From Hormiphora californensis (Eukaryota; Animalia; Ctenophora), in assembly GCA_020137815.1 (NCBI GenBank), contig CM035357.1, positions 3,410,001 to 3,474,000 of the forward strand: DNA of 64,000 nt. Direction: 5' to 3'. The notes beneath the pieces are model-generated. The model ran no database searches. It had not been told where the DNA came from and was given only the letters and a program-made list of their open reading frames with translations. The translations under genes were made by a program, and so were the position numbers. Positions 661-63,851 of the stretch are shown here, piece after piece. The stretch's first letter is position 1, and every line of letters starts with the position of its first letter.

Positions 661-972
661 AGGGATCCCTAAACTGGGGAATTTTTCGGATATTTTTTTT
701 TTGAAAATTTGAAATTTGAGTTTTTTGTCGCGAAAAGACCCAAAACTTTGACGCGCGCGGCGCGGCGGGTAATTGCGGGTAATACGATGCGTATTGGCGC
801 CATACGTCAAGTCGCAAATGTCGTCATAGCGATTACGTCATCGGGTGGGGCGATCGCTTCGAAACTTTGGGGCTGACAAAATGAAACGCATATGTGGTCG
901 TGTGCAAAAGGAATAAGCGATTTGAGAACCTTGAATTTTGTATGCGTACACCCTAATATACTGTAATTGAAG

Positions 973-3900
973 AGTCTAAACAACCCGAAATGACAATTTA
1001 AACATATTTTGACATATTTTGAGGCCCTGAGACCAGCGGGTGGCCAAATTTAATCAGGTTTCGGGTCGGCTGACGTAAAAACTCCGCGTTTTGGTCGAGG
1101 TAAAACCATAACCATAAACCATAACCATAGATATTTTTAGAGTGAAAGTTTTGAAGCCCCCTGAAGTAGTAGAGAGGTGTTCTATGGCTCGTTGGAAAGG
1201 TCTCGAGGTCCCGCGACGTATAGGGGGTGTGGCGATGGCCATACCCAAACCCATAAGGTGTAGGACGCGAAAAACAGTCAAAATAAGGGGTATACAGAAC
1301 TCGGCAATTAGAAGGAGTAGAAAGGTGTTCTAGGGTGCGTTCGAAAGATCTCGAGGTGCTGAAGTAATTGGAATGTAATTGGAAGTAATTACATGTAATT
1401 AAAATGTAATTACATGTAATTAAAGGGTAATTACATGTAATTAAAATGTCTAAATGACCCAGAATGATAATTTAAACATATTTTGACATATTTGGAGGCC
1501 CTGAAATCAGCGGGTGGCCAAATTTAATCCGGTTTCGGGTCGGCTGACGTAAAAACTCCGCGTTTTGGTCGATCAATAAACCATAAAACCATAAACCATA
1601 AAACCATAGATATTTTTAGAGTGAAAGTTTTGAAGCCCCCTGAAGTATTAGAGAGGTGTTCTATGGCTCGTTGGAAAGGTCTCGAGTTCCCGCGACGTAT
1701 AGGGGGTGTGGCGATGGCCATACCCAAACCTATAAGGGGTAGGACGCGAAAAACAGTCAAAATAAGGGGTATACAGAACTCGGCAATTAGAAGGAGTAGA
1801 AAGGTGTTCTAGGGTGCATTCGAAAGCTCTCGAGGTGCTGAAGTAATTGGAATGTAATTGGAAGTAATTACATGTAATTAAAATGTAATTACATGTAATT
1901 AAAGGGTAATTACATGTAATTAAAAGGTCTAAATGACCCCAAATGACAATTCAGACATATTTTGACATATTTTGAGGCCCTGAGACCAGCGGGTGGCCAA
2001 ATTTAATCCGGTTTCGGGTCGGCTGACGTAAAAACTCCGCGTTTTGGTCGAGGTAACCATAAACCATAACCATAAAACCATAGATATTTTTAGAGTGAAA
2101 GTTTTGAAGCCTCCTGAAGTAGTAGAGAGGTGTTCTATGGCTCGTTGGAAAGGTCTCGAGGTCCCGCGACGTATAGGGGGTGTGGCGATGGCCATACCCA
2201 AACCTATAAGGGGTAGGACGCGAAAAACAGTCAAAATAAGGGGTATACAGAACTCGGCAATTAGAAGGAGTAGAAAGGTGTTCTAGGGTGCGTTCGAAAG
2301 CTCTCGAGGTGCTGAAGTAATTGGAATGTAATTGGAAGTAATTACATGTAATTAAAGGGTAATTACATGTAATTATAGGGTAATTACATGTAATTAAAAG
2401 GTCTAAATGACTCCAAATGACAATTCAGACATATTTTGACGTATTTGGAGGCTCTGAGACCAGCGGGTGGCCAAATTTAATCAGGTTTCGGGTCGGCTGA
2501 CGTAAAAAACTCCGCGTTTTGGTCGAGGTAACCATAAACCATAAACCATAAACCATAGATATTTTTAGAGTGAAAGTTTTGAAGCCCCCTGAAGTAGTAG
2601 AGAGGTGTTCTATGGCTCGTTGGAAAGGTCTCGAGGTCCCGCGACGTATAGGGGTTGTGGCGATGGCCATACCCAAACCCATAAGGGGTAGGACGCGAAA
2701 AACAGTGAAAATAAGGGGTATACTGAACTCGGCAATTAGAAGGAGTAGAAAGGTGTTCTAGGGTGCGTTCGAAAGCTCTCGAGGGTACTGAAGTAATTGG
2801 AATGTAATTGGAAGTAATTACATGTACTTAAAATGTAATTACATGTAATTAAAGGGTAATTACATGTAATTGAAAGGTCTAAATGACCCAGAATGATAAT
2901 TTAAACATATTTTGACGTATTTGGAGCAATTGGAAGGAGTAGAAAGGTGTTCTAGGGTGCGTTCGAAAGCTCTCGAGGTGCTGAAGTAATTGGAATGTAA
3001 TTGGAAGTAATTACATGTAATTAAAGGGTAATTACATGTAATTAAAGGGTAATTACATGTAATTAAAAGGTCAGCATGATCCCAAATGATAATTTAAACA
3101 TATTTTGACGTATTTGGAGGCCCTGAGACCAGCGGGTGGCCAAATTTAATCCAGTTTCGGGTCGGCTGACGTAAAAACTCCGCGTTTTGGTCGAGTAAAC
3201 CATAAACCATAAACCATAGATATTTTTAGAGTGAAAGTTTTGAAGCCCCCTGAAGTAGTAGAGAGGTGTTCTATGGCTCGTTGGAAAGGTCTCGAGGTCC
3301 CGCGACGTATAGGGGGTGCGGCGATGGCCGTACCCAAACCCATAAGGGGTAGGACGCGAAAAACAGTCAAAATAAGGGGTATGCAGATCTCGGCAATTAG
3401 AAGGAGTAGAAAGGTGTTCTAGGTAGCGTTCGAAAGCTCTCGAGGTGCTGAAGTAATTGGAATGTAATTGGAAGTAATTACATGTAATTAAAATGTAATT
3501 ACATGTAATTAAAGGGCAATTACATGTAATCAAAAGGTCTAAATGACCCCAAATGACAATTTAAACATATTTTAACGTATTTGGAGGCCCTGAGACCAGC
3601 GGGTGACCAAATTTATTCCGGTTTCGGGTCGGCTGACGTAAAAACTCCGCGTTTTGGTCGAGTAACCATAAACCATAACCATAGATATTTTTAGAGTGAA
3701 AGTTTTGAAGCCCCCTGAAGTAGTAGAGAGGTGTTCTATGGCTCGTTGGGAAGGTCTCGAGGTCCCGCGACGTATAGGGGGTGTGGCGATGGCCATACCC
3801 AAACCTATAAGGGGTAGGACGCGAAAAACAATCAAAATAAGGGGTATACAGAACTCGGCAATTAGAAGGAGTAGAAAGGTGTTCTAGGGTGCGTTCGAAA

Positions 3901-6900
3901 GCTCTCGAGGTGCTGAAGTAATTGGAATGTAATTGGAAGTAATTACATGTAATTAAAATGTAATTACATGTAATTAAAGGGTAATTACATGTAATTAAAA
4001 GGTCTAAATGACCCCAAATGACAATTTAGACATATTTTGACATATTTGGAGGCCCTGAGACCAGCGGGTGGCCAAATTTAATCAGGTTTCGGGTCGGCTG
4101 ACGTAAATAAACCATAAACCATAAACCATAACCATAACCATAAAACCATAGATATTTTTAGAGTGAAAGTTTTGAAGCCCCCTGAAGTAGTAGAGAGGTG
4201 TTCTATGGCTCGTTGGAAAGGTCTCGAGGTCCCGCGACGTATAGGGGGTGTGGCGATGGCCATACCCAAACCTATAAGGGGTAGGACGCGAAAAACAGTC
4301 AAAATAAGGGGTATACAGAACTCGGCAATTGGAAGGAGTAGAAAGGTGTTCTAGGGTGCGTTCGAAAGCTCTCGAGGTGCTGAAGTAATTGGAATGTAAT
4401 TGGAAGTAATTACATGTAATTAAAATGTAATTACATGCAATTAAAGGGTAATTACATGTAATTAAAAGGTCTAAATGACCCCAAATGACAATTTAGACAT
4501 ATTTTGACATATTTGGAGGCTCTGAGACCAGCGAGTGGCCAAATTTAATCAGGTTTCGGGTCGGCTGACGTAAAAACTCCGCGTTTTGGTCGAGGTAACC
4601 ATAAAACCATAACCATAAACCATAGATATTTTTAGAGTGAAAGTTTTGAAGCCCCCTGAAGTAGTAGAGAGGTGTTCTATGGCTCGTTGGAAAGGTCTCG
4701 AGGTCCCGCGACGTATAGGGGGTGTGGCGATGACCATACCCAAACCCATAAGGGGTAGGACGCGAAAAACAGTCAAAATAAGGGGTATACAGAACTCGGC
4801 AATTAGAAGCAGTAGAAAGGTGTTCTAGGATGCGTTCGAAAGCTCTCGAGGTGCTGAAGTAATTGGAATGTAATTGGAAGTAATTACATGTAATTAAAAT
4901 GTAATTACATGTAATTAAAGGGTAATTACATGTAATTAAAAGGTCTAAATGACCCCAAATGAAAATTCAGACATATTTTGAAATATTTGGAGACCCTGAG
5001 ACCAGCGGATGGCCAAATTTAATCTGGTTTCGGGTCGGCTGACGTAAAAACTCCGCGTTTTGGTCGAGGTAAACCATAACCATAAAACCATAGATATTTT
5101 TAGAGTGAAAGTTTTGAAGCCCCCTGAAGTAGTAGAGAGGTGTTCTATGGCTCGTTGGAAAGGTCTCGAGGTCCCACGACGTATAGGGGGTGTGGCGATG
5201 GCCATACCCAAACCTATAAGGGGTAGGACGCGAAAAACAGTCAAAATAAGGGGTATGCTGAACTCGGCAATTAGAAGGAGTAGAAAGGTGTTCTAGGGTG
5301 CGTTCGAAAGCTCTCGAGGTGCTGAAGTAATTGGAATGTAATTGGAAGTAATTACATGTAATTAAAGGGTAATTACATGTAATTAAAGGGTAATTACATG
5401 TAATTAAAAGGTCTAAATGATCCCAAATGACAATTCAGACATATTTTGACATATTTGGAGGCCCTGAGACCAGCGGGTGGCCAAATTTAATCCGGTTTCG
5501 GGTCGGCTGACGTAAAAACTCCGCGTTTTGGTCGAGGTAAACCATAAACCATAACCATAGATATTTTTAGAGTGAAAGTTTTGAAGCCCCGCTGAAGTAG
5601 TAGAGAGGTGTTCTATGGCTCGTTGGAAAGGTCTCGAGGTCCCGCGACGTATAGGGGGTGTGGCGATGGCCATACCCAAACCTATAAGGGGTAGGACGCG
5701 AAAAACAGTCAAAATAAGGGGTATACAGAACTCGGCAATTAGAAGGAGTATAAAGGTGTTCTAGGGTGCGTTCGAAAGCTCTCGAGGTGCTGAAGTAATT
5801 GGAATGTAATTGGAAGTAATTACATGTAATTAAAATGTAATTACATGTAATTAAAGGGTAATTACATGTAATTAAAAGGTCTAAATGACCCCAAATGACA
5901 ATTTAAACATATTTTGACATATTTGGAGGCCCTGAGACCAGCGGATGGCAAAATTTAATCCGGTTTCGGGTCGGCTGACGTAAAAACTCCGCGTTTTGGT
6001 CGAGGTAAACCATAAAACCATAGATATTTTTAGAGTGAAAGTTTTGAAGCCCCCTGAAGTAGTAGAGAGGTGTTCTATGGCTCGTTGGAAAGGTCTCGAG
6101 GTCCCGCGACGTATAGGGGGTGTGGCGATGGCCATACCCAAACCTATAAGGGGTAGGACGCGAAAAACAGTCAAAATAAGGGGTATACAGAACTCGGCAA
6201 TTAGAAGGAGTAGAAAGGTGTTCTAGGGTGCGTTCGAAAGCTCTCGAGGTGCTGAAGTAATTGGAATGTAATTGGAAGTAATTACATGTAATTAAAATGT
6301 TATTACATGCAATTAAAGGGTAATTACATGTAATTATTAATTAATTAATTACTAATTAAAAGGTCTAAATGACCCCAAATGACAATTTAGACATATTTTG
6401 ACATATTTGGAGGCTCCGAGACCAGCGAGTGGCCAAATTTAATCAGGTTTCGGGTCGGCTGACGTAAAAACTCCGCGTTTTGGTAGAGGTAACCATAACC
6501 ATAAAACCATAAAACCATAGATATTTTTAGAGTGAAAGTTTTGAAGCCCCCTGAAGTAGTAGAGAGGTGTTCTATGGCTCGTTGGAAAGGTCTCAAGGTC
6601 CCGCGACGTATAGGGGGTGCGGCGATGGCCGTACCCAAACCCATAAGGGGTAGGACGCGAAAAACAGTCAAAATAAGGGGTATGCAGATCTCGGCAATTA
6701 GAAGGAGTAGAAAGATTTTCTAGGTAGCGTTCGAAAGCTCTCGAGGTACTGAAGTAATTGGAATGTAATTGGAAGTAATTACATGTAATTAAAATGTAAT
6801 TACATGTAATTAAAGGGTAATTACATGTAATTAAAAGGTCTAAATGACCCCAAATGACAATTTAGACATATTTTGACATTTTTGGAGGCCCTGAGACCAG

Positions 6901-8573
6901 CGGGTGGCCAAATTTAATCAGGTTTCGGGTCGGCTGACGTAAAAACTCCGCGTTTTGGTCGAGGTAACCGTAAAACCATAAACCATAAAACCATAGATAT
7001 TTTTAGAGTGAAAGTTTTGAAGCCCCCTGAAGTAGTAGAGAGGTGTTCTATGGCTCGTTGGAAAGGTCTCGAGGTCCCGCGACGTATAGGGGGTGTGGCG
7101 ATGGCCATACCCAAACCTATAAGGGGTAGGACGCGAAAAACAGTCAAAATAAGGGGTATACAGAACTCGGCAATTAGAAGGAGTAGAAAGGTGTTCTAGG
7201 GTGCGTTCGAAAGCTCTCGAGGTGCTGAAGTAATTGGAATGTAAAGTCGGATTTTTTGAAACTGTCACCCCCCTGGGTATTTTCAAATTTCGTAAATGAC
7301 CATAAATCCGGTTCCTGACGAGATAGAGACTTGAAATTTGGAGGTTACGAAGATCTTGCTAAGTTCTTCCGAACCTCCAAATTTCAAGTCTCTATCTCAT
7401 CAGGAACCGGAGATATGGCAAATTTTGTTATTTCAGGGGGGTGACAGTTTCAAAAAATCCGACTTTAATTGGAAGTAATTACATGTAATTAAAATGTAAT
7501 TACATGTAATTAAAGGGTAATTACATGTAATTAAAAGGTCTAAATGACCCCAAATGACAATTCAGACATATTTTGACATATTTGGAGGCCCTGAGACCAG
7601 CGGGTGGCAAAATTTAATCCGGTTTCGGGTCGGCTGACGTAAAAACTCCGCGTTTTGGTCGAGGTAACCATAAACCATAAACCATAGATATTTTTAGAGT
7701 GAAAGTTTTGAAGCCCCCTGAAGTAGTAGAGAGGTGTTCTATGGCTCGTTGGAAAGGTCTCGAGGTCCCGCGACGTATAGGGGGTGTGGCGATGGGTGTG
7801 CCCAAACCTATAAGGGGTAGGACGCGAAAAACAGTCAAAATAAGGGGTATGCTGAACTCGGCAATTAGAAGGAGTAGAAAGGTGTTCTAGGGTGCGTTCG
7901 AAAGCTCTCGAGGTGCTGAATTAATTGGAATGTAATTGGAAGTAATTACATGTAATTAAAATGTAATTACATGTAATTAAAGGGTAATTACATGTAATTA
8001 AAAGGTCTAAATGACCCCAAATGACAATTCCGACATATTTGGAGGCCCTGAGACCAGCAAGTGGCAAAATTTAATCAGGTTTCGGGTCGGCTGACGTAAA
8101 AACTCCGCGTTTTGGTCGAGATACCAGATAAAAAAAACCATAAAACCATAGATATTTTTAGAGTGAAAGTTTTGAAGCCCCCTGAAGTCGTAGAGAGGTT
8201 TTCTATGGCTCGTTGGAAAGGTCTAGAGGTCCCGCGACGTATAGGGGGTGCGGCGATGACCGTACCCAAACCCATAAGGGGTAGGACGCGAAAAACAGTC
8301 AAAATAAGGGGTATGCAGATCTCGGCAATTAGAAGGAGTAGAAAGGTGTTCTAGGTAGCGTTCGAAAGCTCTCGAGGTGCTGAAGTAATTGGAATGTAAT
8401 TGGAAGTAATTACATGTAATTAAAGGGTAATTACATGTAATTAAAAGGTCTGCATGATCCCAAATGATAATTTAAACATATTTTGACGTATTTGGAGGCC
8501 CTGAGACCAGCGGATGGCCAAATTTAATCCGGTTTCGGGTCGGCTGACGTAAAAACTTCGCGTTTTGGTCGAG
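973..8573. repeat. Tandem array of a ~470 bp unit (15 full units plus partial units)
   Basis: Units start aaccatagatatttttagagtg near 1123, 1603, 2078, 2552, 3213, 3678, 4146, 4620, 5087, 5554, 6017, 6514, 6991, 7681 and 8145 and end ttttggtcgag. Each carries internal AATTACATGTAATT palindromes and a variable (AACCATA)n linker. Confidence 0.95.
7244..7465. mobile_element. Tc1/mariner-type MITE inserted into one satellite unit
   Basis: TIR aagtcggattttttgaaactgtcacccccctg with a TA duplication. The empty site ggaatgTAattgg is present in the other units. Confidence 0.9.
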
Positions 8574-9260
8574 TTTACCAATCCCTGTAAATATTTTCCG
8601 GTTACTTACAAGCCGATTCTTGCGAAATGTTTGGGGTTCATTAATTTCCCAATATTCACGAGCTATTCATCTACTGAATCTCTGAAGACTAGTCAGCTAG
8701 CCTTCAGAGATAGTCGAATAATTATATTATGTCAAGATAAATACGAGGATGCACCAACAATTTTAATTCTAGCATAAACTCGCCATATATGACCAAAAAA
8801 TCAGAAAATAATCGGACGGTTTATCATTTATGTCACATCTGAGCGCGATTATTGTCTTGCACGCCGTTCATCCTCCCTTTAACCGTGACCTATCAAAGTA
8901 TAGGGCAGTACATCAGTCGTTTATAGCTTCTTACTTCAGAATAATATGCGAGGCAGCTGTACAGAATAGCAGTGGTATCGGGTGATTTTACATACAATAG
9001 TTACAGTGGCTATTATGTATAAACGACATTTACTTTGACACTCTGATAGGTCACGGTAAAGTGGGAGAAATGGATGATCAAAGGCGTGCAACTCGGGGTT
9101 GAACAAAACAAATACTCCATGTCACCATTAATAATATTAGTCCAGTTAATGACAATCATGAAATCAGCATAACACAACACATCAGAATCAATAATATCAA
9201 CATTATTGACACACTCAGGATCATTTGTAAAACAAAGATCTCCCGCCAGTTTAATGTTTG

Positions 9261-10810
9261 TTAAGTTATTGAATTCCTTCTCCGTAAAGTTTGCACATTT
9301 TCATTCGTAGTAATGATACCAAAATTAGTTTCTTGGATCTCGCCTCTGGTTGGCATCATAGCAATGCAACTGGAACATTTCATATGCATCTTAATACAAT
9401 TCGATGTGTTATCGGCAACTTTACATTCCTCCTCTTTCTTGTTCACGGGTACTCCATCACCGACAATGTTTTGCCGGTGACAATTATCTACACTTATAAT
9501 ATCATTTGCTGGTTCGGGTAAGACTGGTACACCATGAACCAATGCACAGATTGATGACCAAGAATTCATAGCAGCTGCCATTTTTTCCATGGCAGGTCTA
9601 AGCACATCAAACACTTTAGTTAGTATATCACTGTACAAAAGTGGGTTTAGTACAGAGTTAATTGGTAGGATGTTGAGGGAGAAGACCTGGTACCACGGTG
9701 ACATATCCACCACCTCGGCTGTATGGAGGGCACAACAAATCAAGAAGGGTAGCCAACAACATAAGTCCGTTACACACAACCAAGTAACTTTGCGACCAAG
9801 TTTATTATTGTTGCGCCGGTCTGCCCCAGGAACTGCCGCCTTAATCGACAAGACCACAATTAAGATATGGCACACTGCAACGGTCATAAAGCAGAGAAAG
9901 TGAAGGCTGATGTAGAACCAGACAAAGACAACCTGGGGATCATTGGGGAGGACAAAAAACTTAAACGTACAAACTGGATCGTTACCGTAGAATGACACCT
10001 TTTTACCTGAAACAGTCCCATAATCCGCGGAAAACATTTCCGCGACCATTCCTTGAATTGTATTCCAGGAAATGCCAGCCTTCCTTCGAGAACGTTCAGA
10101 GTACCTTACCCCGTAGTAGCCATAGACAATCTGCAAAAATCGTGCCTTGTCCACCGTACCAAGGAAAAGTGATATATTCTTAGGAAATACAAGTCCATTG
10201 ACAAACCAATCTTCCAAAGAATCTAGTAGAGGCACTAATGCAAATGCGAGAGCAATAAGCAAAATAAACGCTAGGCATAGAATAACTTTAAGCCGAAGCT
10301 CCTCCGAAACATCGCCAGACTGTCTGTAACGAAGAGCTCGTCTTGTTCCATAAAGCCGGTAAATGCTTATACCCGCCATGGCTAAGGAGGAAACTGTCGC
10401 TCCGACCGTGTTTAGTACACCTATGATTTTACAAGTTCTCCCACTAATCCATTCTAATTGCTTAACACAGAAATCAGTGCTTTTAAAGATATGCAGGGTT
10501 GTTAAGGTGAGGAGATAGCAGGGAGTTAAGAGATCTCCAAAGGAGATTGCAAGTACGAACACATGATTCACAAAGGCTCCACTTTTATCCGGAAGTTTCT
10601 GGATAAATGTTTTCACGAAGGCTGTTAATCTCAACGGCAAACACAGTTGGCGTAACTCAGAAAGGGGACAATTTCAGTGCTCTCCAATTGCGTCGCGGCG
10701 CGGGGGGGGGGTCACTCTCTCTCTCTCTCTCCCCCTTTTCGATGGTTTCTGAACACTCACAGACACTGTGTGGTGATCTCAAATTTCTCTCTCTCTCTCT
10801 CTCTCTCTCC

Positions 10811-10871
<61 letters not shown>

Positions 10872-10901
10872 TCAATCTTTCCCTAATTGTGAGGGATGAA
10901 G

Positions 10902-10957
<56 letters not shown>

Positions 10958-11548
10958 CATACATTACTGGGCTTCCTGATAGGGGCCCTCCGCCCTGATT
11001 AAAGTAATTTATTGTCACAAGCCGTGATATCCTTATTCCTTCAAGGAATATATAAAATGGGCCTGAAATATGCAAGGAATTTCCTTGCATATTTCAGGCC
11101 CATTTTATATATAATCAATAAACCCTGTTTATATGTAGCGGGTCGCCCGCTAGGGTGATTCGCTACATCATATACTGCCCGACCTGCGAAGTAGGGAGGG
11201 TGGTATATGGTATAAGACCCGACCAAAGGGAGGGGTTTGTACTTTCTATAAGCAAGGATTTATTGATTATAAGTTTAAGCGGAAAAAAAGCTTGCTTTTT
11301 ATTATAGCAGGCGGGGTTTGTCAGACAGATTTTCACCCGCTGGAGTGCCCTTAAAGAGTCGCACTGCACTGGTGCTATATTGTCGAAATACTAAAATTAA
11401 AAAAAGACACATTTACATACGGTACTTGAATATAAAAGCTTCTCAGCCATAAACCTGACTACTCGGCCACTTGCCGGGTGTCAGTTGATGATATTCCATG
11501 TACTTATATCTGATTTGAAATGGTTGCTCTCTCTCCGTCTGTCTCCCT

Positions 11549-11618
<70 letters not shown>

Positions 11619-14600
11619 ATCTCTCTCTATCTATCTATCTATCTATCTCTCTGATTGAGAGAGTGAGAGCGGGATTGAGAGAGGGAGATTATCTATGGTT
11701 TTGTATGTCTTTGGGGATGTTATACGCCCAAAGACATACACTAATGGGGACCCCTACCCGGAAGCCGGATAATATGGTCTCGGGTGTCCTAAACCTACAG
11801 TTTTTGGACACCGGAGACTTACTATCCGGCTTCCTGATTAAAGTGGTTTATTGTCCCAAGCCGTGAATTCGGCAAAACATTTCGTTGTTTCACGACATTA
11901 TTGTACACTGTGTGTTCCTTTGCTGGGGTGCTCCGTGCTTGAGTTTCCCCTCTCTCTATCTCTTACCGCGAACCGTAGAACAGAATGAGCTTGTACGAGT
12001 TATAGATCTCTACAGCTGGAGAGTGGAGACGTGACACACGTCGACATCTCTCTCTCTCTTCCTTTCCCTCTCTCTATCTCTCTCTCTGGACCCTGGACTA
12101 TCTCTCCGTCACTCTCTTACTCTTTCAACATTTTAGCGAAGTCTCCGCATCAGCAAAAGATTCCATCTGGTAGTTTGGATGCCAAAAACACACTTCCCGG
12201 GGTGCTAGAGCCCCGAAAACCCCAGGAATCTTGAATGAGGGTAGAGAATAGTCTAGGTATGTAGTTTCATGACATAATCTTGTCAGCTTTTTTCTGGGTG
12301 AAGCCCAACGCTTGTAAAGATACAAAATGATTAATGAACACCCTGTACATGTACATACATTAACATGCTACATATTATCAACAACAACTACATTGATGGG
12401 TGAGAAGCGTTAAGGGCCAAAACCAAAATCCCCTTAGATGTATGGAATTTTTTATTTCTCCATTTTTTTCGACAATAACACCAGTGCAGCAGTGCGATAA
12501 TATCGAAGAGCAGCCAGCAAGGACGCTGCTCAGTTTCAAAAAAATATCTCAATCTTCCTTTCTCTCTGATATGTGGTCCCAAGGGAATACTGATCCCCTC
12601 TAACAAGGTTTTACTAGTAAAAGTATGTCTCTCACTTTTCTCCCCTTTGAGAAAAGAGAGAGCGATACATTAGTTTAGTACTCCCTGACTTGACGTAGGG
12701 GGCGAAAAGGAGAGATCTGTACAGTGCTGAACTGATATTTATGGTAAAGTACGCCAACTGTGTTTGCCGTCTACTTTAGTCCTATAGAAATTCCAAGGAC
12801 CCCCATAATAGATGCGATCAAGATCGTAACATAACTTTTAACTACTGTCCTACTGCAGCTGTCATTGCATTCGTCTGAAAAGTCCTTGCAGTCAGCTTTT
12901 CCATCGCATTTCTGGCTCAGAGGTAAAAACGAGGAGTTATCAGCACACTGGAAATTGTTGGCACACCCAGCATCCTCATCAGACCTGTCCCCACAGTCAT
13001 CAACCAGGTCACACACCCTCTCAAATAGAATACACTTCCGGTTTTTACACACGAACACGTTGTTATGAAACGCAGTTTTTTGTCGGAAAACTGATGTCAC
13101 AACACTTAACTCCGTGTTAAGTGAGTAAACTGCAATTGGGAGATTGTGACAGGAATTATGTAGTACCGGTCTATTCAAAGGGCATGCAGCATTTATACAT
13201 AGTCCAGTACAGCTGTGAAGGACATACGCCTCACCATAGAGGTATCTACAATCTTGCTTCCGGTCCAATGTGACAAGGGCTGTTGTTAGGTTCTTACCGA
13301 AGAATTGGTGAAATGGGTAGTTGAATTTTCGGAGTGAACACTGCTCCTTCATATGAAGGAGCACCGAGGAAAGACCTTTGTTGCATACATTTCCAACCAG
13401 ATATTCATTTCCAAATAGTTGAGCGGACGAAGGTCGGGCTAGAGCTTTATTTACATTTACCCTTCTTCTCGCGCTCTGACAAACCCCCTCGTCGCACGTA
13501 TGGGCCGAAGAACATACGATGGAAGAGTCTAGGAATTCTGAATGGTTGCCATAGCACAAGAACACGTTAGAACACGGTGCCGTGTCCACCTTAATCCTCA
13601 GAGTGGTGCCATTGCCGCACTTTTCCCAATTATCTTTCTCGTCGATGCCACTTTCACAATCTAAAACTCCATCTTGGATCCAATCCACCGGAACTCGAGA
13701 CAATTTCCCAAACCGTCTCTGACAAGTGTGAGTGGTAACTTTACCAGATCCACACCATATTTGACCCTCATCCATGCCACCTGCACAATCCTCCGTACCA
13801 TCACAAAGCTTATGCTTATGAATAAAGCAATACCGACCAACCCTGACACACTTCAACTCGATCCCATCATCACACAACTGTGGAGATTTATTGCTATCAC
13901 AGATCACATAGATGGAAATTGTGCTGCGATAACCGTTCACCAGACAGCTACCTCCTATCTTGGCCGGATCTGTGCAGTTAGTTTGGTCCATTCCAGATTG
14001 TACGCAGTAGGTAGACCTTTGAGGACTGAAAATATTTTCATTTCGACCATTGAATGTTAAGAAACATCGTGAACCGTTATACAAGGCAAATCTGCTACTG
14101 ATATGGCCGATACCATAAGATAATGCGTCACAAAGAAGTGCATCCTGATCCCAAGGAGGGGCTGTTCCTTCTTTTGGCATTCCTTGGAACGGCATAAAGA
14201 CCAGATCGTTAGAAACAGTTCCGTAGACGATTCCCCCGCCGCAATCCCGCTCCTCGACACACGTCATTTTGGAGCTTTGTGTTTCGCCAATCCAGATATC
14301 GTCACATATCCCATCGCAAACACCTCCCAATTTCAATGTGACCTCGACAATACTACCATTTTGTAGAGTGATATGATAAAACATAGTTCCTCCAGTTTTA
14401 TCGCTACACGCCTGGACGTCTTTCTGGACAAAGTTATCTTCAAAATTGTCGAAACAGACAACTCCACAAACCGGTGGCTGATCAAACATTTCAAGGAGAC
14501 TATGGTCAAAGAATTTGCCCATATATAATTGTCCACATGCCTGATAGATAGCGTCATCATTTGGGCAGAGTACAGAATAATGAGTTGTGGATATACGTTT

Positions 14601-15349
14601 TATACCGTTGTAGACTCCCTGTTTTTTATAGGTCACATTGGCCCAGTGCGAAACGTTGTTCAAGGTGTTATCAATGTGAAATCCGGTCGAAAAAAGTGCT
14701 ATAATTTTTTTCTATGAGGGTGATATTTTTAGGGTGATATTTTCCAATGCGCCACTATCACTGAGAGTTGTATATCACTGAATCATAATACTGGTCGGTG
14801 TTAGCCCTTGAAAAATTTCGCAGCGCCGGCAAGGGCCCCCAGGAGTATCTTAAATGCACATATGCATTCCGTGCATTCCAGCAGTTTTAAAGACTATCCG
14901 AGCAAGAAAAACTACTTTTGACATTATATCTACTATCTAGGAGTACATATAATGGTCGGTGTTAGCACCTGAAAAAATTTAGCAGCGCTGGCAAGCGCCA
15001 CTAGCGTATAATGATGATGATGGGGGTGAAATAAGTCATAAATTTAAGCATAAAAGTGATATCAATTAGATTGATAAATTGGCCAACATTTCGCACCGGG
15101 CACATTGGGAGCGGTGACACATTGAAAAATACTTTCACGCATCGAGAAGTACCGCTCCGTATTACAGATGTGGGCTAGAAACCCGTAATCAATGGCGATA
15201 GGACAAAGCTTCCCGTCTTCATAAGTATCAGATTGCGAAGAATTTACTCCAGATGAGTCAGTCATGGGTCCACTGTTGTCTGGAAAAGGGTCGACTGTTG
15301 CAAGAAGCACATTCAGTGTAAAGAACATTTTCCAGGTTCCTGTAGACAT
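9261..15349 (-). CDS. LDLa-repeat-containing rhodopsin-class GPCR (GRL101-related, no LRRs seen); coding segments ~15349-15062, ~14700-12775 and 10629-9261
   Basis: The first segment has a signal-peptide-like start. The 630-aa ORF has LDLa motifs (CDGTEDCAGGMDE, CDLVDDCGDRSDE, CDGKADCKDFSDEC) and the start of TM1. The 459-aa ORF has TM2-7 with GDLL, CWLPF and NPLLY. The two large ORFs are in the same frame. The first junction is uncertain. Confidence 0.85.
10630..12774 (-). mobile_element. 2.1 kb TIR element interrupting GPCR TM1; candidate spliced introner-like insertion
   Basis: Perfect 21-bp TIR ACGGCAAACACAGTTGGCGTA at 10634-10654 and 12750-12770. Minus-strand GT at 12774 and AG at 10630 lie 4 nt outside the TIRs. 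The interior has CT/GA tracts, a hairpin (~11050-11110) and a MITE fragment (~12125-12345). Confidence 0.75.
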
Positions 15350-24104: not shown

Positions 24105-27100
24105 CCATCTCTACCACTCGAACCTCCTCGTAAGAAGAAAAAGGCAAGGGTGAGTCTCGTAGACAGAACACGATTTTTTGTCTATCTGGCAGCGCCGTGC
24201 ACCCGATCTGGGCGCTCTGTCCTCAACTTGAGAATCTAGACGGGGGGGGGGACAGATTATTGTATAATTCTTGTTCGACCAGCCTTCTCACTGTGTGCCA
24301 CTTTTCAGAGTACGTTTGAAAGGAAGATTGTGAAAGAGACCCCGTACCAAGCCAAGGTGGTGAGAAGGAACCCCTCCCGACACGCTCGGAACACCATCGA
24401 TCATGTACCCGATGGTGAGTGAGCCTACCATATCTCTTATTGGGCATATTAGTATTGGCCTGGCCCTATTTGATTATCATTTCGTTCGAATAAGGAAACA
24501 GCGGTCAGAGCATTGGCCTAACAACTTTCTCTCCCCATCTTTCTTTGTTTATATCTTTCTCGGGCGTTATTTTATTGTTTGAATTTATTATAATTCACCC
24601 ACGTGTGCTGAATAATGAACCCCCAATGATTGTATAGGTGTCGAGGTAGCGTTACGGGAGAGTGGAGACCACGATGAGTTTTTTGAGACCCCCATTTGTC
24701 TCTCAACATCTACGGGCCGCTATCATGTAAGATCATATCATAATATCAGATCAGATAATCGTACAGTACCGATGATTATGTGAGATTGTATCCCCTCTTT
24801 TTGCTTGAAGACCCCTTACTCAACAACTTTTTGCTGGACGCAAAATTTAGCGATTTGAATTTACAATTACCATGTAAATTTACAACTACTGTGTATTTTT
24901 TTCAGAACAGACCAGTGAGAGAGGTAGAAGTTGAATTCAAAACTGAGGAGGATCGAGAGAAGTGGAATGAAGATGTATCTAAACCAGCGGAGCATTTTAC
25001 AGACAAAATCTACAGTGCTAATGTAGGTTTAATTCATTCTAAATATTTTTGTTCCACTTTTATTAATTAGTAATACATAATTGACACCCATTAACCCCGC
25101 CTAATCGACACTAATTAACTCTTTACATTACCACACAGGGTACAACATGTCACCAGTGCCGACAAAAGACACTGGACGGTAAAACCCGGTGTAAGAACAT
25201 CAACTGCCCGGGACAGAGGGGGCAGTTTTGTAACGTTTGTCTGAAGAATAGATACGGAGAAAAGGTGCTGGATGCCCTACAGGATAAGGTATGTAGCGGG
25301 ATGTTCCACAAACATACTATTTATATCCACCCACAAACGACTTACGACATCTAATATCTCCCATAGTTCTGTAACTCACTACCCACCTGATCTAAGTGCA
25401 CTGTCGTTTGGAATCAAAACGGCCAGGCAAGAAAAATCCCCTTCACCCAACTTGTTCCCCACAACTTTTCCTACCCTGTAACCTCCTCTCCCTCCACAGA
25501 GATGGCTGTGTCCACCATGTCGGGGTATTTGCAACTGCTCCCTCTGTAACCCCTCTCCCTCTACAGAGATGGCTGTGTCCACCGTGTCGGGGTATTTGCA
25601 ACTGCTCCGTCTGTAACCCCTCTCCCTCTACAGAGATGGCTGTGTCCACCGTGTCGGGGTATTTGCAACTGCTCCGTCTGTAACCCCTCTCCCTCCACAG
25701 AGATGGCTGTGTCCACCGTGTCGGGGTATTTGCAACTGCTCCGTCTGTAACCCCTCTCCCTCTACAGAGATGGCTGTGTCCACCGTGTCGGGGTATTTGC
25801 AACTGCTCCGTCTGTAACCTCCTCTCCCTCCACAGAGATGGCTGTGTCCACCGTGTCGGGGTATTTGCAACTGCTCCGTCTGTAACCTCCTCTCTCCCTC
25901 TACAGAGATGGCTGTGTCCACCGTGTCGGGGTATTTGCAACTGCTCCGTCTGTAACCCCTCTCCCTCCACAGAGATGGCTGTGTCCACCGTGTCGGGGTA
26001 TTTGCAACTGCTCCGTCTGTAACCTCTCTCTCCCTCCACAGAGATGGCTGTGTCCACCGTGTCGGGGTATTTGCAACTGCTCCCTCTGTAACCCCTCTCC
26101 CTCTACAGAGATGGCTGTGTCCACCATGTCGGGGTATTTGCAACTGCTCCGTCTGTAACCCCTCTCCCTCCACAGAGATGGCTGTGTCCACCGTGTCGGG
26201 GTATTTGCAACTGCTCCGTCTGTAACCCCTCTCCCTCTACAGAGATGGCTGTGTCCACCATGTCGGGGTATTTGCAACTGCTCCGTCTGTAACCCCTCTC
26301 TCCCTCTACAGAGATGGCTGTGTCCGCCGTGTCGGGGTATTTGCAACTGCTCCGTCTGTAACCCCTCTCTCCCTCTACAGAGATGGCTGTGTCCGCCGTG
26401 TCGGGGTATTTGCAACTGCTCCGTCTGTAACCTCCTCTCTCCCTCTACAGAGATGGCTGTGTCCACCGTGTCGGGGTATTTGCAACTGCTCCGTCTGTAA
26501 CCCCTCTCTCCCTCTACAGAGATGGCTGTGTCCACCGTGTCGGGGTATTTGCAACTGCTCCGTCTGTAACCCCTCTCCCTCTAGAGAGATGGTTGTGTCC
26601 ACCGTGTCGGGGTATTTGCAACTGCTCCGTCTGCAACCCCTCTCCCTCTACAGAGATGGCTGTGTCCACCGTGTCGGGGTATTTGCAACTGCTCCGTCTG
26701 TAACCCCTCTCTCCCTCTACAGAGATGGCTGTGTCCGCCGTGTCGGGGTATTTGCAACTGCTCCGTCTGTAACCTCCTCTCTCCCTCTACAGAGATGGCT
26801 GTGTCCACCGTGTCGGGGTATTTGCAACTGCTCCGTCTGTAACCCCTCTCTCCCTCTACAGAGATGGCTGTGTCCACCGTGTCGGGGTATTTGCAACTGC
26901 TCCGTCTGTAACCCCTCTCCCTCTAGAGAGATGGTTGTGTCCACCGTGTCGGGGTATTTGCAACTGCTCCGTCTGTAACCCCTCTCCCTCTACAGAGATG
27001 GCTGTGTCCACCATGTCGGGGTATTTGCAACTGCTCCGTCTGTAACCCCTCTCCCTCTACAGAGATGGCTGTGTCCACCGTGTCGGGGTATTTGCAACTG

Positions 27101-28168
27101 CTCCGTCTGTAACCTCCTCTCTCCCTCCACAGAGATGGCTGTGTCCACCGTGTCGGGGTATTTGCAACTGCTCCGTCTGTAACCCCTCTCCCTCTACAGA
27201 GATGGCTGTGTCCACCGTGTCGGGGTATTTGCAACTGCTCCGTCTGTAACCTCTCTCCCTCCACAGAGATGGCTGTGTCCACCGTGTCGGGGTATTTGCA
27301 ACTGCTCCGTCTGTAACCCCTCTCCCTCTACAGAGATGGCTGTGTCCACCGTGTCGGGGTATTTGTAACTGCTCCGTCTGTAACCTCTCTCCCTCCACAG
27401 AGATGGCTGTGTCCACCGTGTCGGGGTATTTGCAACTGCTCCGTCTGTAACTCCCGCCGAGGAAGACCCCCAACTGGTGTGCTTCTACCCATCGCAATGG
27501 AAAAGGGGTTTTCTTGTGTCAAGGATTATTTGGAAAGGTGAGATTCTAAAAAAGGACGCGGGAAGTTTATTTGATGCAACATATATGTTGCTCAGAAGTG
27601 TTCATAGACTGTTCTGTTCAAGCCTTATCTCAATTCTTTTTGTTGAGTTACTCAAAAAATTATTTGCAGTGTCGAACAGAAGAAAGGAAAGAAACGAAGG
27701 GCTGGAGGAGAACTTGTTGTTGAATTTGATGATGAGAACAAAGAAAATATCGATCCGAGGGGAAATGTAAAACAGGTACATATTTTATTCTCTGGATCAG
27801 CTGTGTAGGGCTGACGGCACCGTCCGTGGTGGAGACAGTGTGAAGAGAGTGACCCCTGGCCCTGTGGTGAACTCACGTGGTCCCGAGTTTTATCACTATC
27901 AGGCATAGACGACTCGAGATTTTACAAAGTTTATTTGTAAGATTAAGAAAATTGTGAATTTGTAATCGTTTTTATTATATCGTGACCTGGAAATTTAAAC
28001 ATTCCATCCTCCCAGGAACTACAGACTGAGGGCATCAAAGTTGAACCACCGAGGGAGATAAAGGAGGAAATGTTAGAAGAGGACTGTTTCGAGAATATAG
28101 ATCCTGCACTAATTGAACAAGCATTGATTGCAGTCAAACAGGAATTGAGTGAAAAGGGAATTGAGTAA
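24105..28168 (+). pseudogene. CDCA7: Second, 5'-truncated CDCA7-like copy (tandem duplicate or uncollapsed haplotype)
   Basis: Starts in the middle of exon 2 (ccatctctaccactcgaacc). Exons 3-9 are nearly identical to copy 1, with TAA at 28166-28168. No exon 1 is present. Confidence 0.75.
25476..27451 (+). repeat. 29 copies of a 67-70 bp minisatellite made of a splice acceptor plus the first 51 nt of CDCA7 exon 7
   Basis: Unit ccctctccctctacag|AGATGGCTGTGTCCACCGTGTCGGGGTATTTGCAACTGCTCCGTCTGTAAC. Copy 1 has a single instance. Confidence 0.95.
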
Positions 28169-29032: not shown

Positions 29033-30518
29033 GGCAATTTCGGATTAGCCGCAAACGTTGTCTGGACCTGTTTGGCGGCGGCGCCGTCAGACCAGATCAG
29101 AGCCAGATCGAGTCGACGCCGCCAGACAGGTCTGGACGGGCTTCAACGTTCAGACGCCGTCTGACCAATCTTGATCTTAAACGCGTTTTTCCCACAACCG
29201 AGACGGGATTGAACTTCAAGCCCGTCTCAAGTTCACTTCAAATTGAAGCTGACTTGAGACGAGCAACACTATACTGATACACGGTGTTCATTTTGGATCT
29301 TTACAAGCGTTGGGCTTCACCCAGAAGAAAGTTGACAAAATTAGCTTATGAAACTTCATACTTGGACTATTCTATACCCTCATTCAAGGTTCCTGGTGTT
29401 TTCGGAGCTCTAGCATCCCGGGAAGTGTGTTTTCGGTATCAAAACTACCAGAAGGAATTTTTTTGCTTGTGCTGAGACTTTGCTAAAATGTTTTTTGGGT
29501 ATTTTCTATCTCAAACTCAAAGTTTTATGATGATTTCATGTGTTTTTCGGTCTCAGAATTTCGAAAAAAGTGGCTGGAAAGACTCTAAAATGTCAATTTT
29601 TGAGCCATTTTAGAGTCTTTTCAGCCACTTTTTTCGAAATTCTGAGACCGAAAAACACATCCAATCATCATAAAACTTTGGGTTTGACATAGAAAATACC
29701 CAAAAAACATTTTAGCATAGTCTTAGCACCAGCAAAAATTCCTTCTGGTATGTAGTTTTGATGCCAAAAACACACTTCCTGGGGTGCTAGAGCTCCGAAA
29801 ACACCAGGAACCTTGAATGAGGGTATAGAATAGTCCAAGTATGAAGTTTCATAAGCTAAGTTAGCTGCTAACTTTGCCAACTTTTTTCTGGGTGAAGCCC
29901 AACGCGTTGCAACGCTTGTAAAGATCCAAAATGAACACCCTGTACAAGTGCAGGCGTGCGTTTATACGAGTTTTGACGAAATCGGACGGAACTTCTGAAA
30001 CCAAACACTGTTTGAAAGTGAAACACGTCTCAAGAATCAAAATGTGTCGCAAATTAGAATCTCCGTCTCAAAAACACACATTCAGGCGTTCTTGAGACGA
30101 AATTTCCAATTGGCGACACGTGTTCCGTCTGATTTCGTCCAGCTCAATGCTCATCAGTCTGATTTCGACTAACTACGTCTAAACCTTGGGCACGTCGCGC
30201 CCTCTTTTTTTCGCGAACCCCTCACACAGAGGCTTCGCAGCCAAGTCTAAACCGTAAAAAACGCACGTCTACTTGTAGCCCGTCTCAACCTGTCGTCCTG
30301 TCTGGCAGTGGCGCCGCCGACCCCATCTGAACGCACGACGAGTTGAGACATGTCTCAACTCGTCTTATTCAAGCCCGTCCTGTCTGGCGGCGCCAGACCA
30401 CAATTTGATTCTAAAATTTGAGCACGCGACAGTGTGCTCAGATGGGGTCGCGGCGCCAGACAGAGCCCGTCTTGGGGGAAACCGTCTAGACAATGTTTGC
30501 GGTTAATCCGAAATTGCC
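29033..30518. mobile_element. PIF/Harbinger-like non-autonomous element containing a nested MITE
   Basis: TIR ggcaatttcggatta(g/a)ccgcaaac(g/a)ttgtct(g/a)gac at both ends. Confidence 0.7.
29280..29942. mobile_element. Tc1/mariner-type palindromic MITE
   Basis: ta-cacggtgttcattttggatctttacaagcg ... cgcttgtaaagatccaaaatgaacaccctg-ta; almost entirely self-complementary. Confidence 0.85.
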
Positions 30519-30823: not shown

Positions 30824-60403
<29,580 letters not shown>

Positions 60404-61993: not shown

Positions 61994-63851
61994 ATGAAAC
62001 AGAAGTACCAGACCCTAGAGGAAAACACCCCAATTCTCCCTGGACCCGGGACATGCTCCCTGACCCCTGAAGCCATCAGGACCGCAGTGGCTGTCACCAT
62101 GGGAGGGTTCCTATTTGGTTATGATATTGGGGTAATGAGTGGAGCTCTGGTCAAGTTGTCTGAGGACACAGCCGGGGACTCAGCCTGGGGTCTAGATGAT
62201 AACCCTTTTAGGTAGGTAGCATGGGGTCTAGATGATAACCCTTTTAGGTAGATAGCATGGGGTCTAGATGATAACCCTTTTAGGTAGGTAGCATGTGGTC
62301 TAGATGATAACCCTTTTAGGTAGGTAGCATGGGGTCTAGATGATAACCCTTTTAGGTAGGTAGCATGGGGTCTAGATGATAACCCTTTTAGGTAGGTAGC
62401 ATGGGGTCTAGATGATAACCCTTTTAGGTAGGTAGCATGGGGTCTAGATGATAACCCTTTTAGGTAGCTGATGTAGTTGATTGTCTAAAACTAAACTAAT
62501 GTCTCCTTTTTATTACGGACTAGCGCACCCATTGGGTGCGCCTCAAGTAAGGGCTTTTTGATAACCCACCCGGCTTCGCCGGGTGGTTCTTTTCACCCCT
62601 TTCAACGTCAATAACACGGTTGCCATGGCAACTGAATTAGTAACTATGGGGACTGGCATGTTAAAAGTCATTCGAAAATATTAACCAACTTCCACTGGAA
62701 GTTCCAAAAGTGTGAATGACAGCTTTACAGCTTTGGGCACATAAAGTGTTTTATGAAGGAGCACTGTCGCGTAGAAACGCACTGAACGAACGGCCACTTC
62801 GACGACGTTCATCTCCAAATTCCATTGTTTTCCATACTCATTCGTCCGATTTACAGTCTCCTAACTAGCTATAAGTTGCAACTAACTACTAAGTTGCAAC
62901 TCGACATTTTCAGACAGGAAGTTGTAGTGTCTGCCACGATTATATTCGCTGCCATTGGATCCCTGCTCAGTGCACCGCTGAACAGGTCGTTAGGACGGAA
63001 ACCAGTCTTGTTGGGAGGGGCCCTGTTGTTTTCACTGTGCGGGGGTGTTATGGGTACCAGTTGGAACTGGTGGGTGCTAACATGCGGGAGAGCAATGGCA
63101 GGAATTGCAATAGGTCTCCTGTCGATGACAGCCCCACTTCTCATATCTGAACAGGTACTTAGTAACCATGGCAACCATACAGGTAACCATGGTAACACAC
63201 TTCTCATATCTGAAGACTGAACAGGTACTTAGTAACCATGGTATATCTGAACAGGTACTTTAGATTAGTGTAACCATGGTGGTAACCATGGTAACCATGG
63301 TAACCACTAACCATGGTAACATCTATATCTCCCTCCCACTTATAGATGGCTACAGAGTGGCGTGGTCCTGTCAACGTTGCAAATCAACTGATGATCACTG
63401 TAGGCATCCTGGTAGCTAGCATTGTAGCGGGAGGATTCTCTACAACTCCAGATGGGTAATATGTGCGATAAAGGAAAAAAGGCAAGGTCTACTCAGACCA
63501 AATATTTAGGAATGAAGTCTAAGTTCGAAAGTCTCGTCAAACGGATATAGATGTGTGTATCATACTGTTTCATATGGTAACCATGGTAACTCAGGTAACC
63601 ACAAGCCATGGTAACCATGGTAACCCAACTCTCTCTATTCCCTAGTTGGAGGTACATGTTGGGTTTATCTAGTGTCCCTGCTATTCTCATGGTGATGCTC
63701 GTGTGGTCCATCTCGGAGAGTGTTAGGTGGCTGGCACACAGTGGCAAACTGGGGGAGGCCAAGGCAGTGCTTCGGAAACTCAGGGATGACGATGTGGAGC
63801 TGGAGTGGGAGATGATCTTGGATGATATTGGGAACTGTAGTCAGGACGCAG
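61994..63851 (+). CDS. SLC2A13: MFS sugar porter, proton/myo-inositol cotransporter-like (5' part; gene continues past the window)
   Basis: Exons 61994-62211, ~62914-63154, ~63347-63455 and ~63646-63851 encode GGFLFGYDIGVMSGAL, QEVVVSATI, LGRKPVLL, GRAMAGIAIG, WRYMLGLSSVPA and ESVRWL. Confidence 0.85.
62186..62466 (+). repeat. Eight copies of a 36-bp exon-end/donor unit
   Basis: TGGGGTCTAGATGATAACCCTTTTAG|gtaggtagca repeated eight times. Confidence 0.95.
62519..62820 (-). mobile_element. Dispersed repeat fragment with a CCCGGCGAAGCCGGG hairpin (Helentron-like)
   Basis: Reverse complement of ~37870-38166; the same hairpin occurs at ~28413. Confidence 0.65.

Follow-up and report, generated by a model that had tools for sequence, protein, structure and literature searches.

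A terminal inverted repeat transposon with frame-restoring GT and AG ends in a ctenophore LDLa-GPCR gene: most likely a gene-disrupting insertion and not an intron

Introduction

Can a DNA transposon that has landed in the coding sequence of a receptor gene be spliced out of the transcript, or has it simply broken the gene? This question is raised by a 64,000-nt stretch of the genome of the ctenophore Hormiphora californensis (GenBank assembly GCA_020137815.1, contig CM035357.1, forward-strand positions 3,410,001 to 3,474,000). This whole stretch is the window of this study, and all coordinates refer to it. A terminal inverted repeat (TIR) transposon, here element 1, interrupts a minus-strand gene for a G-protein-coupled receptor (GPCR) with LDLa repeats. 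A sequence-only reading of the window had put forward two options for it, namely a new, introner-like intron caught in a gene otherwise made of very large exons, or a gene-killing insertion. In this study, we observed that the second option is the better one. The GPCR gene was hit twice, and element 1 most likely inactivates this allele or copy and is not spliced out.

Results

Two open reading frames (ORFs) were recognized around element 1. The upstream one (12771-14711) carries LDLa repeats (PF00057) and the downstream one (9261-10673) a rhodopsin-type seven-transmembrane (7TM) domain, 7tm_1 (PF00001),. The coding sequence is distributed over three minus-strand pieces: piece 1 (15101..15349), with the ATG and 83 codons; piece 2 (12777..14641), with the ectodomain, its LDLa repeats and the start of the first transmembrane helix (TM1); and piece 3 (9261..10627), with the remaining 7TM domain, the C-terminal tail and the stop. 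Element 1 sits in the TM1 coding region. When both insertions and one copy of each target duplication were taken out, a single ORF of 3471 nt (1156 amino acids) was obtained, which displays 70% identity to the homologue P0001 over 1143 columns and is gap-free within 12 residues of both junctions. Since the restored ORF is uninterrupted, the GPCR coding sequence was intronless and twice hit, and the supposed very large exons result from two insertions that divide a single exon. The closest homologues are 70-72% identical to the receptor. Two protein searches revealed 21 and 14 members of the family, the named match being from Mnemiopsis leidyi, and the 'sb' identifiers of the closest matches are presumably Pleurobrachia gene models. 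Many paralogue contigs of 85-90% identity also cover the same GPCR exon, and the receptor is most likely a single-exon member of an expanded, multi-copy LDLa-GPCR family.

Element 1 is a non-coding, multi-copy TIR DNA transposon inserted into this exon. With a TA target duplication (12777..12778 as the upstream and 10626..10627 as the downstream copy, both on the minus strand), the best ends are 10628..12776 on the minus strand, giving a non-autonomous element of 2149 nt; the end pairs 10628-12775 and 10629-12775 are alternatives, and all three end models rebuild the empty site. The 21-bp inverted repeats are perfect and the flanks are as the sequence-only reading described them. The left repeat (12750..12770, minus strand) and the right repeat (10634..10654, plus strand) are complementary at 21/21 positions, each begins 6 nt inside the element end, and they are the sole two sites with fewer than six mismatches in the 64,000 nt searched. 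The terminal 6 nt are asymmetric, left and right agreeing at 2/6 positions. The left end, AAGTAG (12771..12776, minus strand), contains the proposed donor GT (12774-12773), and the right end, TGAGAT on the gene strand (10628..10633, minus strand), contains the proposed acceptor AG (10631-10630). No Pfam family was detected in the six internal frames scanned, in a survey that took in 102 of 287 filtered frames plus a few added ones, and no Rfam family in the interior. The interior harbors (GA)n/(TC)n tracts within 10712..11660 (10712-10735, 10783-10955 and 11540-11660), a near-perfect palindrome of 65 nt (11048..11112), a 34-nt direct repeat (10994-11027 and 11833-11866), and a nested piece (12127..12355) that is 79-88% like the arms of a palindromic element at about 29288-29952. 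That palindromic element spans 29263-29952 with arms of about 230-250 nt, and one arm is nested in element 1.

Further copies were sought in contigs over 10530-10711 and 12360-14700, for which 29 of 99 and 25 of 1723 pieces, respectively, were listed. Parts of 9300-14700 were present in eight of the ten listed runs; six of these runs derive from two studies of organism A and cover its three samples, S1, S2 and S3. Contigs of depth 400-8000 over 12360-12775, with about 17 listed differences from the window copy, show that element 1 is multi-copy. At positions 12448, 12469, 12483, 12526, 12573 and 12657 every aligned contig in the three samples differs from the window. The depth in run X3 over 10628-10662 is that of one contig from another locus, and the exact 21-mer of the inverted repeat had no match in metagenome contigs. 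In X3, record 16 (depth 742) matches from 10626; its flank, the one other flank that could be read, is unrelated, of low complexity and has C as its last letter. In X4, record 24 (depth 1029) starts at 10626. Because these multi-copy contigs share sequence from the TA, the TA duplication is favoured, with ends at 10628 and 12776. A 3-bp NTA duplication may also fit the data. At the opposite end, an X3 contig of depth 2678 appears to match out to 12779, as judged from 40 of 313 difference rows.

A second TIR insertion, which the sequence-only reading did not record, lies 1.9 kb upstream of element 1 in the same coding sequence. Element 2 (14642..15100, minus strand; 459 nt) has a 17-bp TIR matching at 15/17 positions, termini CCC..GGG, and a perfect 8-bp target duplication (15101..15108 and 14634-14641, minus strand). 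Element and duplication together add 467 nt; the reading frame is lost beyond codon 83, and the protein breaks off at 95 amino acids. The gap at 15100/14642 resembles an intron, and P0001 runs continuously across it. Among 36 GT-AG pairs within 70 nt of its junctions, 16 are in frame and none is near-exact, the closest removing 15-22 nt, while the best-scoring tested pair (15096 with 14712) is out of frame. Contig depth is high over the element 2 end. In X4, record 25 covers 14478-14641 without differences; its match ends where the duplication has its outer edge, and 246 more letters follow. It is probably the empty site of element 2.

The empty site of element 1 was observed. Contigs of S1, S2 and S3 carry the uninterrupted GGA CTA ACA (G-L-T), so that the site predicted by the sequence-only reading, to be looked for in other haplotypes or paralogues, was found in three DNA samples. 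The closest homologues agree, as P0001, P0002, P0004, P0046 and P0047 have no added residues here (LIGLTAFVKT in P0004 and P0046). One contig each in X1, X3 and X4 departs from the window at 10627, and by eye the next 27-30 letters shown are upstream exon. In X4 there is a mirror-image departure at 12776, and X3 record 13 agrees with the stretch at all of its 73 aligned letters and then runs on for 72 loose ones. Run X7 (organism B, a small share) holds a paralogue-like empty site and element-like contigs. The RNA-labelled run X10 contributed one record of <90% identity on 12360-14700, which is uninformative on expression or splicing. No contig bridging the filled junction was among the 29 of 99 and the 25 of 1723 pieces listed, and contigs cannot show the absence of a filled allele. 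Neither a protein identical to that of the window, in the two protein searches, nor one with two extra residues at this site, among the printed junctions, was seen, and this is weak evidence, as 4 of the 11 second-search proteins examined had a readable junction. Hormiphora is reported to have high indel heterozygosity (PMC8527503), and presence/absence insertions are thus unsurprising in ctenophores.

The geometry claimed for the candidate intron was confirmed by computation. Removal of GT12774..AG10630 (2145 nt) keeps the frame and brings in no stop; compared with the empty site it leaves 6 extra nt, or two codons, these being 4 nt of element 1 plus the TA duplication. Because both sites are inside element 1, 157 of the 185 TA sites in the GPCR coding sequence would stay in frame and stop-free in the window orientation, against 7/185 in the opposite one. 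When sites within 30 nt were allowed, the opposite orientation still had a solution at 130/185 sites, and 3 of the 16 GT-AG pairs within 30 nt of the element 1 junctions are in frame.

The proposed splice sites were compared with a reference set of 31 introns of the window, 24 from a vinculin-like and 7 from a CDCA7-like gene. The vinculin introns were placed by the best protein alignment alone among all GT/GC-AG pairs, with 24 of 29 exon pairs passing the filter (margin of at least 11), and the CDCA7-like introns by eye, where open frame results. A weight matrix, a small model, was used with leave-one-out scores for the 31 real sites. All 31 real donors have G at -1 or +5, and the element 1 donor, AAA/GTAGAC, has G at neither. 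Donors starting with GTAG do occur elsewhere in the window, as the sequence-only reading stated, but the likeness fails, for the two in the reference set are GTAGGT and GTAGGC, both with G at +5. Real acceptors were CAG in 24 cases and TAG in 7, with neither AAG nor GAG among the 31. The element 1 acceptor, TGAG, has at -3 a G, the sole base never seen there in real acceptors. No real site of the 31 scores as low as its element 1 counterpart, and when ranked among every GT and every AG of the window, the donor stands at the 55th percentile and the acceptor at the 47th. Host-like splice sites were therefore not found at element 1 with this 31-intron comparison. In yeast, a proximal GAG is reported to be skipped in favour of an adjacent UAG (PMC12707134). 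The next YAG beyond the element 1 acceptor, a CAG 8 nt away, is a weak site whose use would lose the frame and lead to a stop 14 codons later, and read-through into element 1 meets a stop after 3 codons.

Several other features of the window were noticed. Directly downstream of the GPCR lies a tandem array (954-8580) of about 16 units of 464-474 bp with 88-94% matches, and related sequence is found at about 18.4-18.9 kb. The CDCA7-like gene (PF10497; 19705-23420, plus strand) has 7 introns called, the last acceptor being the least certain. A 67-bp tandem array of 29 copies (25476-27451), the unit of which consists of a splice acceptor and the first part of the CDCA7-like zinc-finger exon, lies in a partial second CDCA7-like copy at about 24.1-27.8 kb. 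The vinculin-like gene (30827-59793, minus strand) has at least 24 introns, two of them 2129 nt and 4299 nt long, and matches Bolinopsis microptera and M. leidyi. Around 55.2-55.7 kb and 54.0 kb, short exon starts of this gene recur, and one of its exons has a single-base change of frame, near 43091, that is most likely an assembly error. Two ORFs of 217 and 156 amino acids with no Pfam family (43889-45580, minus strand) lie within intron 47959-43661 (4.3 kb) of the vinculin gene, share its strand and are possibly a nested intronic gene, a class reported as common in Hormiphora (PMC8527503). A sugar-porter (PF00083) gene exon was found at 62786-63220 (plus strand).

Discussion

With reference to these observations, the locus is most likely a GPCR gene that suffered two insertions. 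Element 1, inserted at a TA in the first transmembrane helix of a single-exon GPCR, would have been mobilised in trans, by cut-and-paste, by a transposase that duplicates TA. The spliceosome would mostly ignore its AA/GTAGAC donor and TGAG acceptor. Translation would thus end within element 2, at 95 amino acids, or else after 3 codons of element 1, and the broken copy would be tolerated because the receptor family is large and redundant.

Several points weigh against this interpretation. Both GT and AG lie inside element 1 and are in register, each occupying positions 3-4 as counted from its own end; of 200,000 draws of random terminal hexamers, 6.4% gave such a pair in one of the two orientations. 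The GPCR frame is otherwise free of stops and frameshifts, so that no extra decay confirms a pseudogene. Element 2 has a fair donor (15096) which, with a poor in-frame acceptor (14699), would add 23 codons. Moreover, since paralogue contigs over the same stretch show 8-14 differences per 60-95 letters, the identical empty contigs are either the allele or a very recent, near-identical duplicate of the window GPCR. Lastly, that element 1 is not spliced is suggested by site strength as judged with a model of 31 introns.

The first alternative is that element 1 is a real introner, with both splice sites in its asymmetric ends and two codons added, and that this copy is dead perhaps only through element 2. 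We consider this unlikely. The chief point in its favour is the geometry, as the splice dinucleotides are encoded by the element and the frame is kept at most TA sites in one orientation, much as introners of Aureococcus are described to carry both sites and to add codons (10.1101/2022.06.06.494994); the neighbouring vinculin gene, besides, has the introns of 2129 nt and 4299 nt. Set against this, the element 1 donor and acceptor fall below every real site of the reference set and the acceptor has a -3 G absent from real acceptors, for introner families, medians of 30-654 nt in length are reported (10.1101/2022.06.06.494994), and the same GPCR holds an ordinary frame-shifting insertion, element 2. 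As about 6% of random ends give this geometry, it is expected occasionally in a genome-wide scan. A coincidence of 1 in 16, together with non-consensus sites and a gene broken upstream, gives weak support for an introner. Of the first option of the sequence-only reading, the TIR transposon in a GPCR exon thus stands, and the new intron is poorly supported, given both sites below 31/31 and the element 2 frameshift. Because its sites are unlike those of the host and its splicing is hypothetical, element 1 is not classed as an introner; it behaves as an ordinary TIR element that disrupts an exon.

There is also little probability that leaky or cryptic splicing, through stronger sites in or near the elements, yields mostly aberrant mRNA with a trace in frame. 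Element 1 does hold donors (11966, 11822 and 12120) and acceptors (10883 and 11391) that score like real ones, its gene strand has five AATAAA, and a minority of GT-AG pairs near its junctions keep the frame. A full-length receptor would, on the other side, need two separate weak splices, and the best tested pair of element 2 is out of frame, so that such splicing would be functionally near-null. It is highly improbable that the insertion arose in assembly, through a wrong joining of repeats to the gene, for although no listed contig bridges the filled junction and one likely single-base error exists elsewhere in the window, both inserts show matched inverted repeats and clean target duplications that rebuild the empty site, which mis-assembly does not yield.

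As a twice-hit GPCR, the locus as it most likely stands is another case of transposons disrupting an allele or copy of a receptor whose family is expanded, and it matters little. Its use is rather a caution: in about 6% of cases chance gives transposon ends a GT..AG that restores the frame, and such candidates should be compared with real splice sites and with the rest of the gene. It is improbable that a TA-targeting ctenophore transposon family with GT and AG in its asymmetric terminal 6 nt is a working or nascent introner that uses a rare GAG acceptor and segregates in a GPCR. If RNA splicing proved this true, introners would be extended to Ctenophora, as the first in comb jellies, and a presence/absence polymorphism would be at hand in which intron birth could be tracked.

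Comparison with known systems

Introners have been validated by RNA plus repeated intron-coincident copies (10.1101/2022.06.06.494994; PMC12130899). Like those of the Aureococcus type, element 1 is a non-autonomous element that has TIRs and a target duplication, lies in an exon, encloses both splice dinucleotides and, if removed, would add a few codons in frame. It is a transposable element, its exon position is intron-free in homologues, and its GT and AG restore the frame. It differs in that its sites are unlike the real splice sites of the host, in that one exonic copy is known, with no known intron-coincident family and no reported spliced transcript, and in its length of 2.1 kb with nested repeats, compared with the above family medians. 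A literature search for 'introner' with 'ctenophore' found no related paper, judged by listing. The ctenophore genus names searched were found neither in the main text nor in the 14 supplementary files of PMC12130899, and its species list for 8,716 genomes has Nematostella and Strongylocentrotus, with Mnemiopsis, Hormiphora, Pleurobrachia and Bolinopsis absent. Ctenophores therefore appear to lie outside that survey.

Among the LDLa-repeat rhodopsin-class GPCRs of ctenophores, for which we take 'GRL101-like' to be the label, PF00057 and PF00001 are common to the window copy and the others, and the window copy differs in being cut by two transposon insertions.

As to the transposon itself, a Crypton reading was rejected, as Cryptons are described as having short terminal direct repeats and no inverted repeats (PMC3212892) and element 1 has a perfect 21-bp inverted repeat; no relevant literature was found on Cryptons with subterminal repeats. 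A Helentron reading was rejected on the anatomy of element 1. For piggyBac and Kolobok, which target TTAA, the likeness is that CTAA and TTAA flank element 1 symmetrically. The sequence-only reading was right about this symmetry, but its degenerate TTAA duplication gives way to TA, which is more economical: the empty site reads CTAA, CTA is found at another locus, and the sequence shared by the two multi-copy contigs starts at the TA. Moreover, piggyBac termini are CC..GG and Kolobok termini RR..YY, neither of which is present in element 1.

The IS630-Tc1-mariner group is nearer, as it shares a TA duplication, short inverted repeats and a non-coding state with element 1, and mariner is reported to duplicate TA (PMC8969392). 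A possible difference is that the perfect repeat of element 1 begins 6 nt in from either end, with agreement at 2/6 of the terminal positions. Neither a transposase, in the Pfam scan of the six internal frames, nor an autonomous partner, which would carry a DD(34)E/D transposase, was seen. The target of IS630 is CTAG, and the C that precedes TA at two other loci would fit it. Though element 1, with its perfect repeat inset by 6 asymmetric nt and its TA duplication, is assigned here to no superfamily, the TA duplication, as read from its ends, would fit Tc1/mariner.

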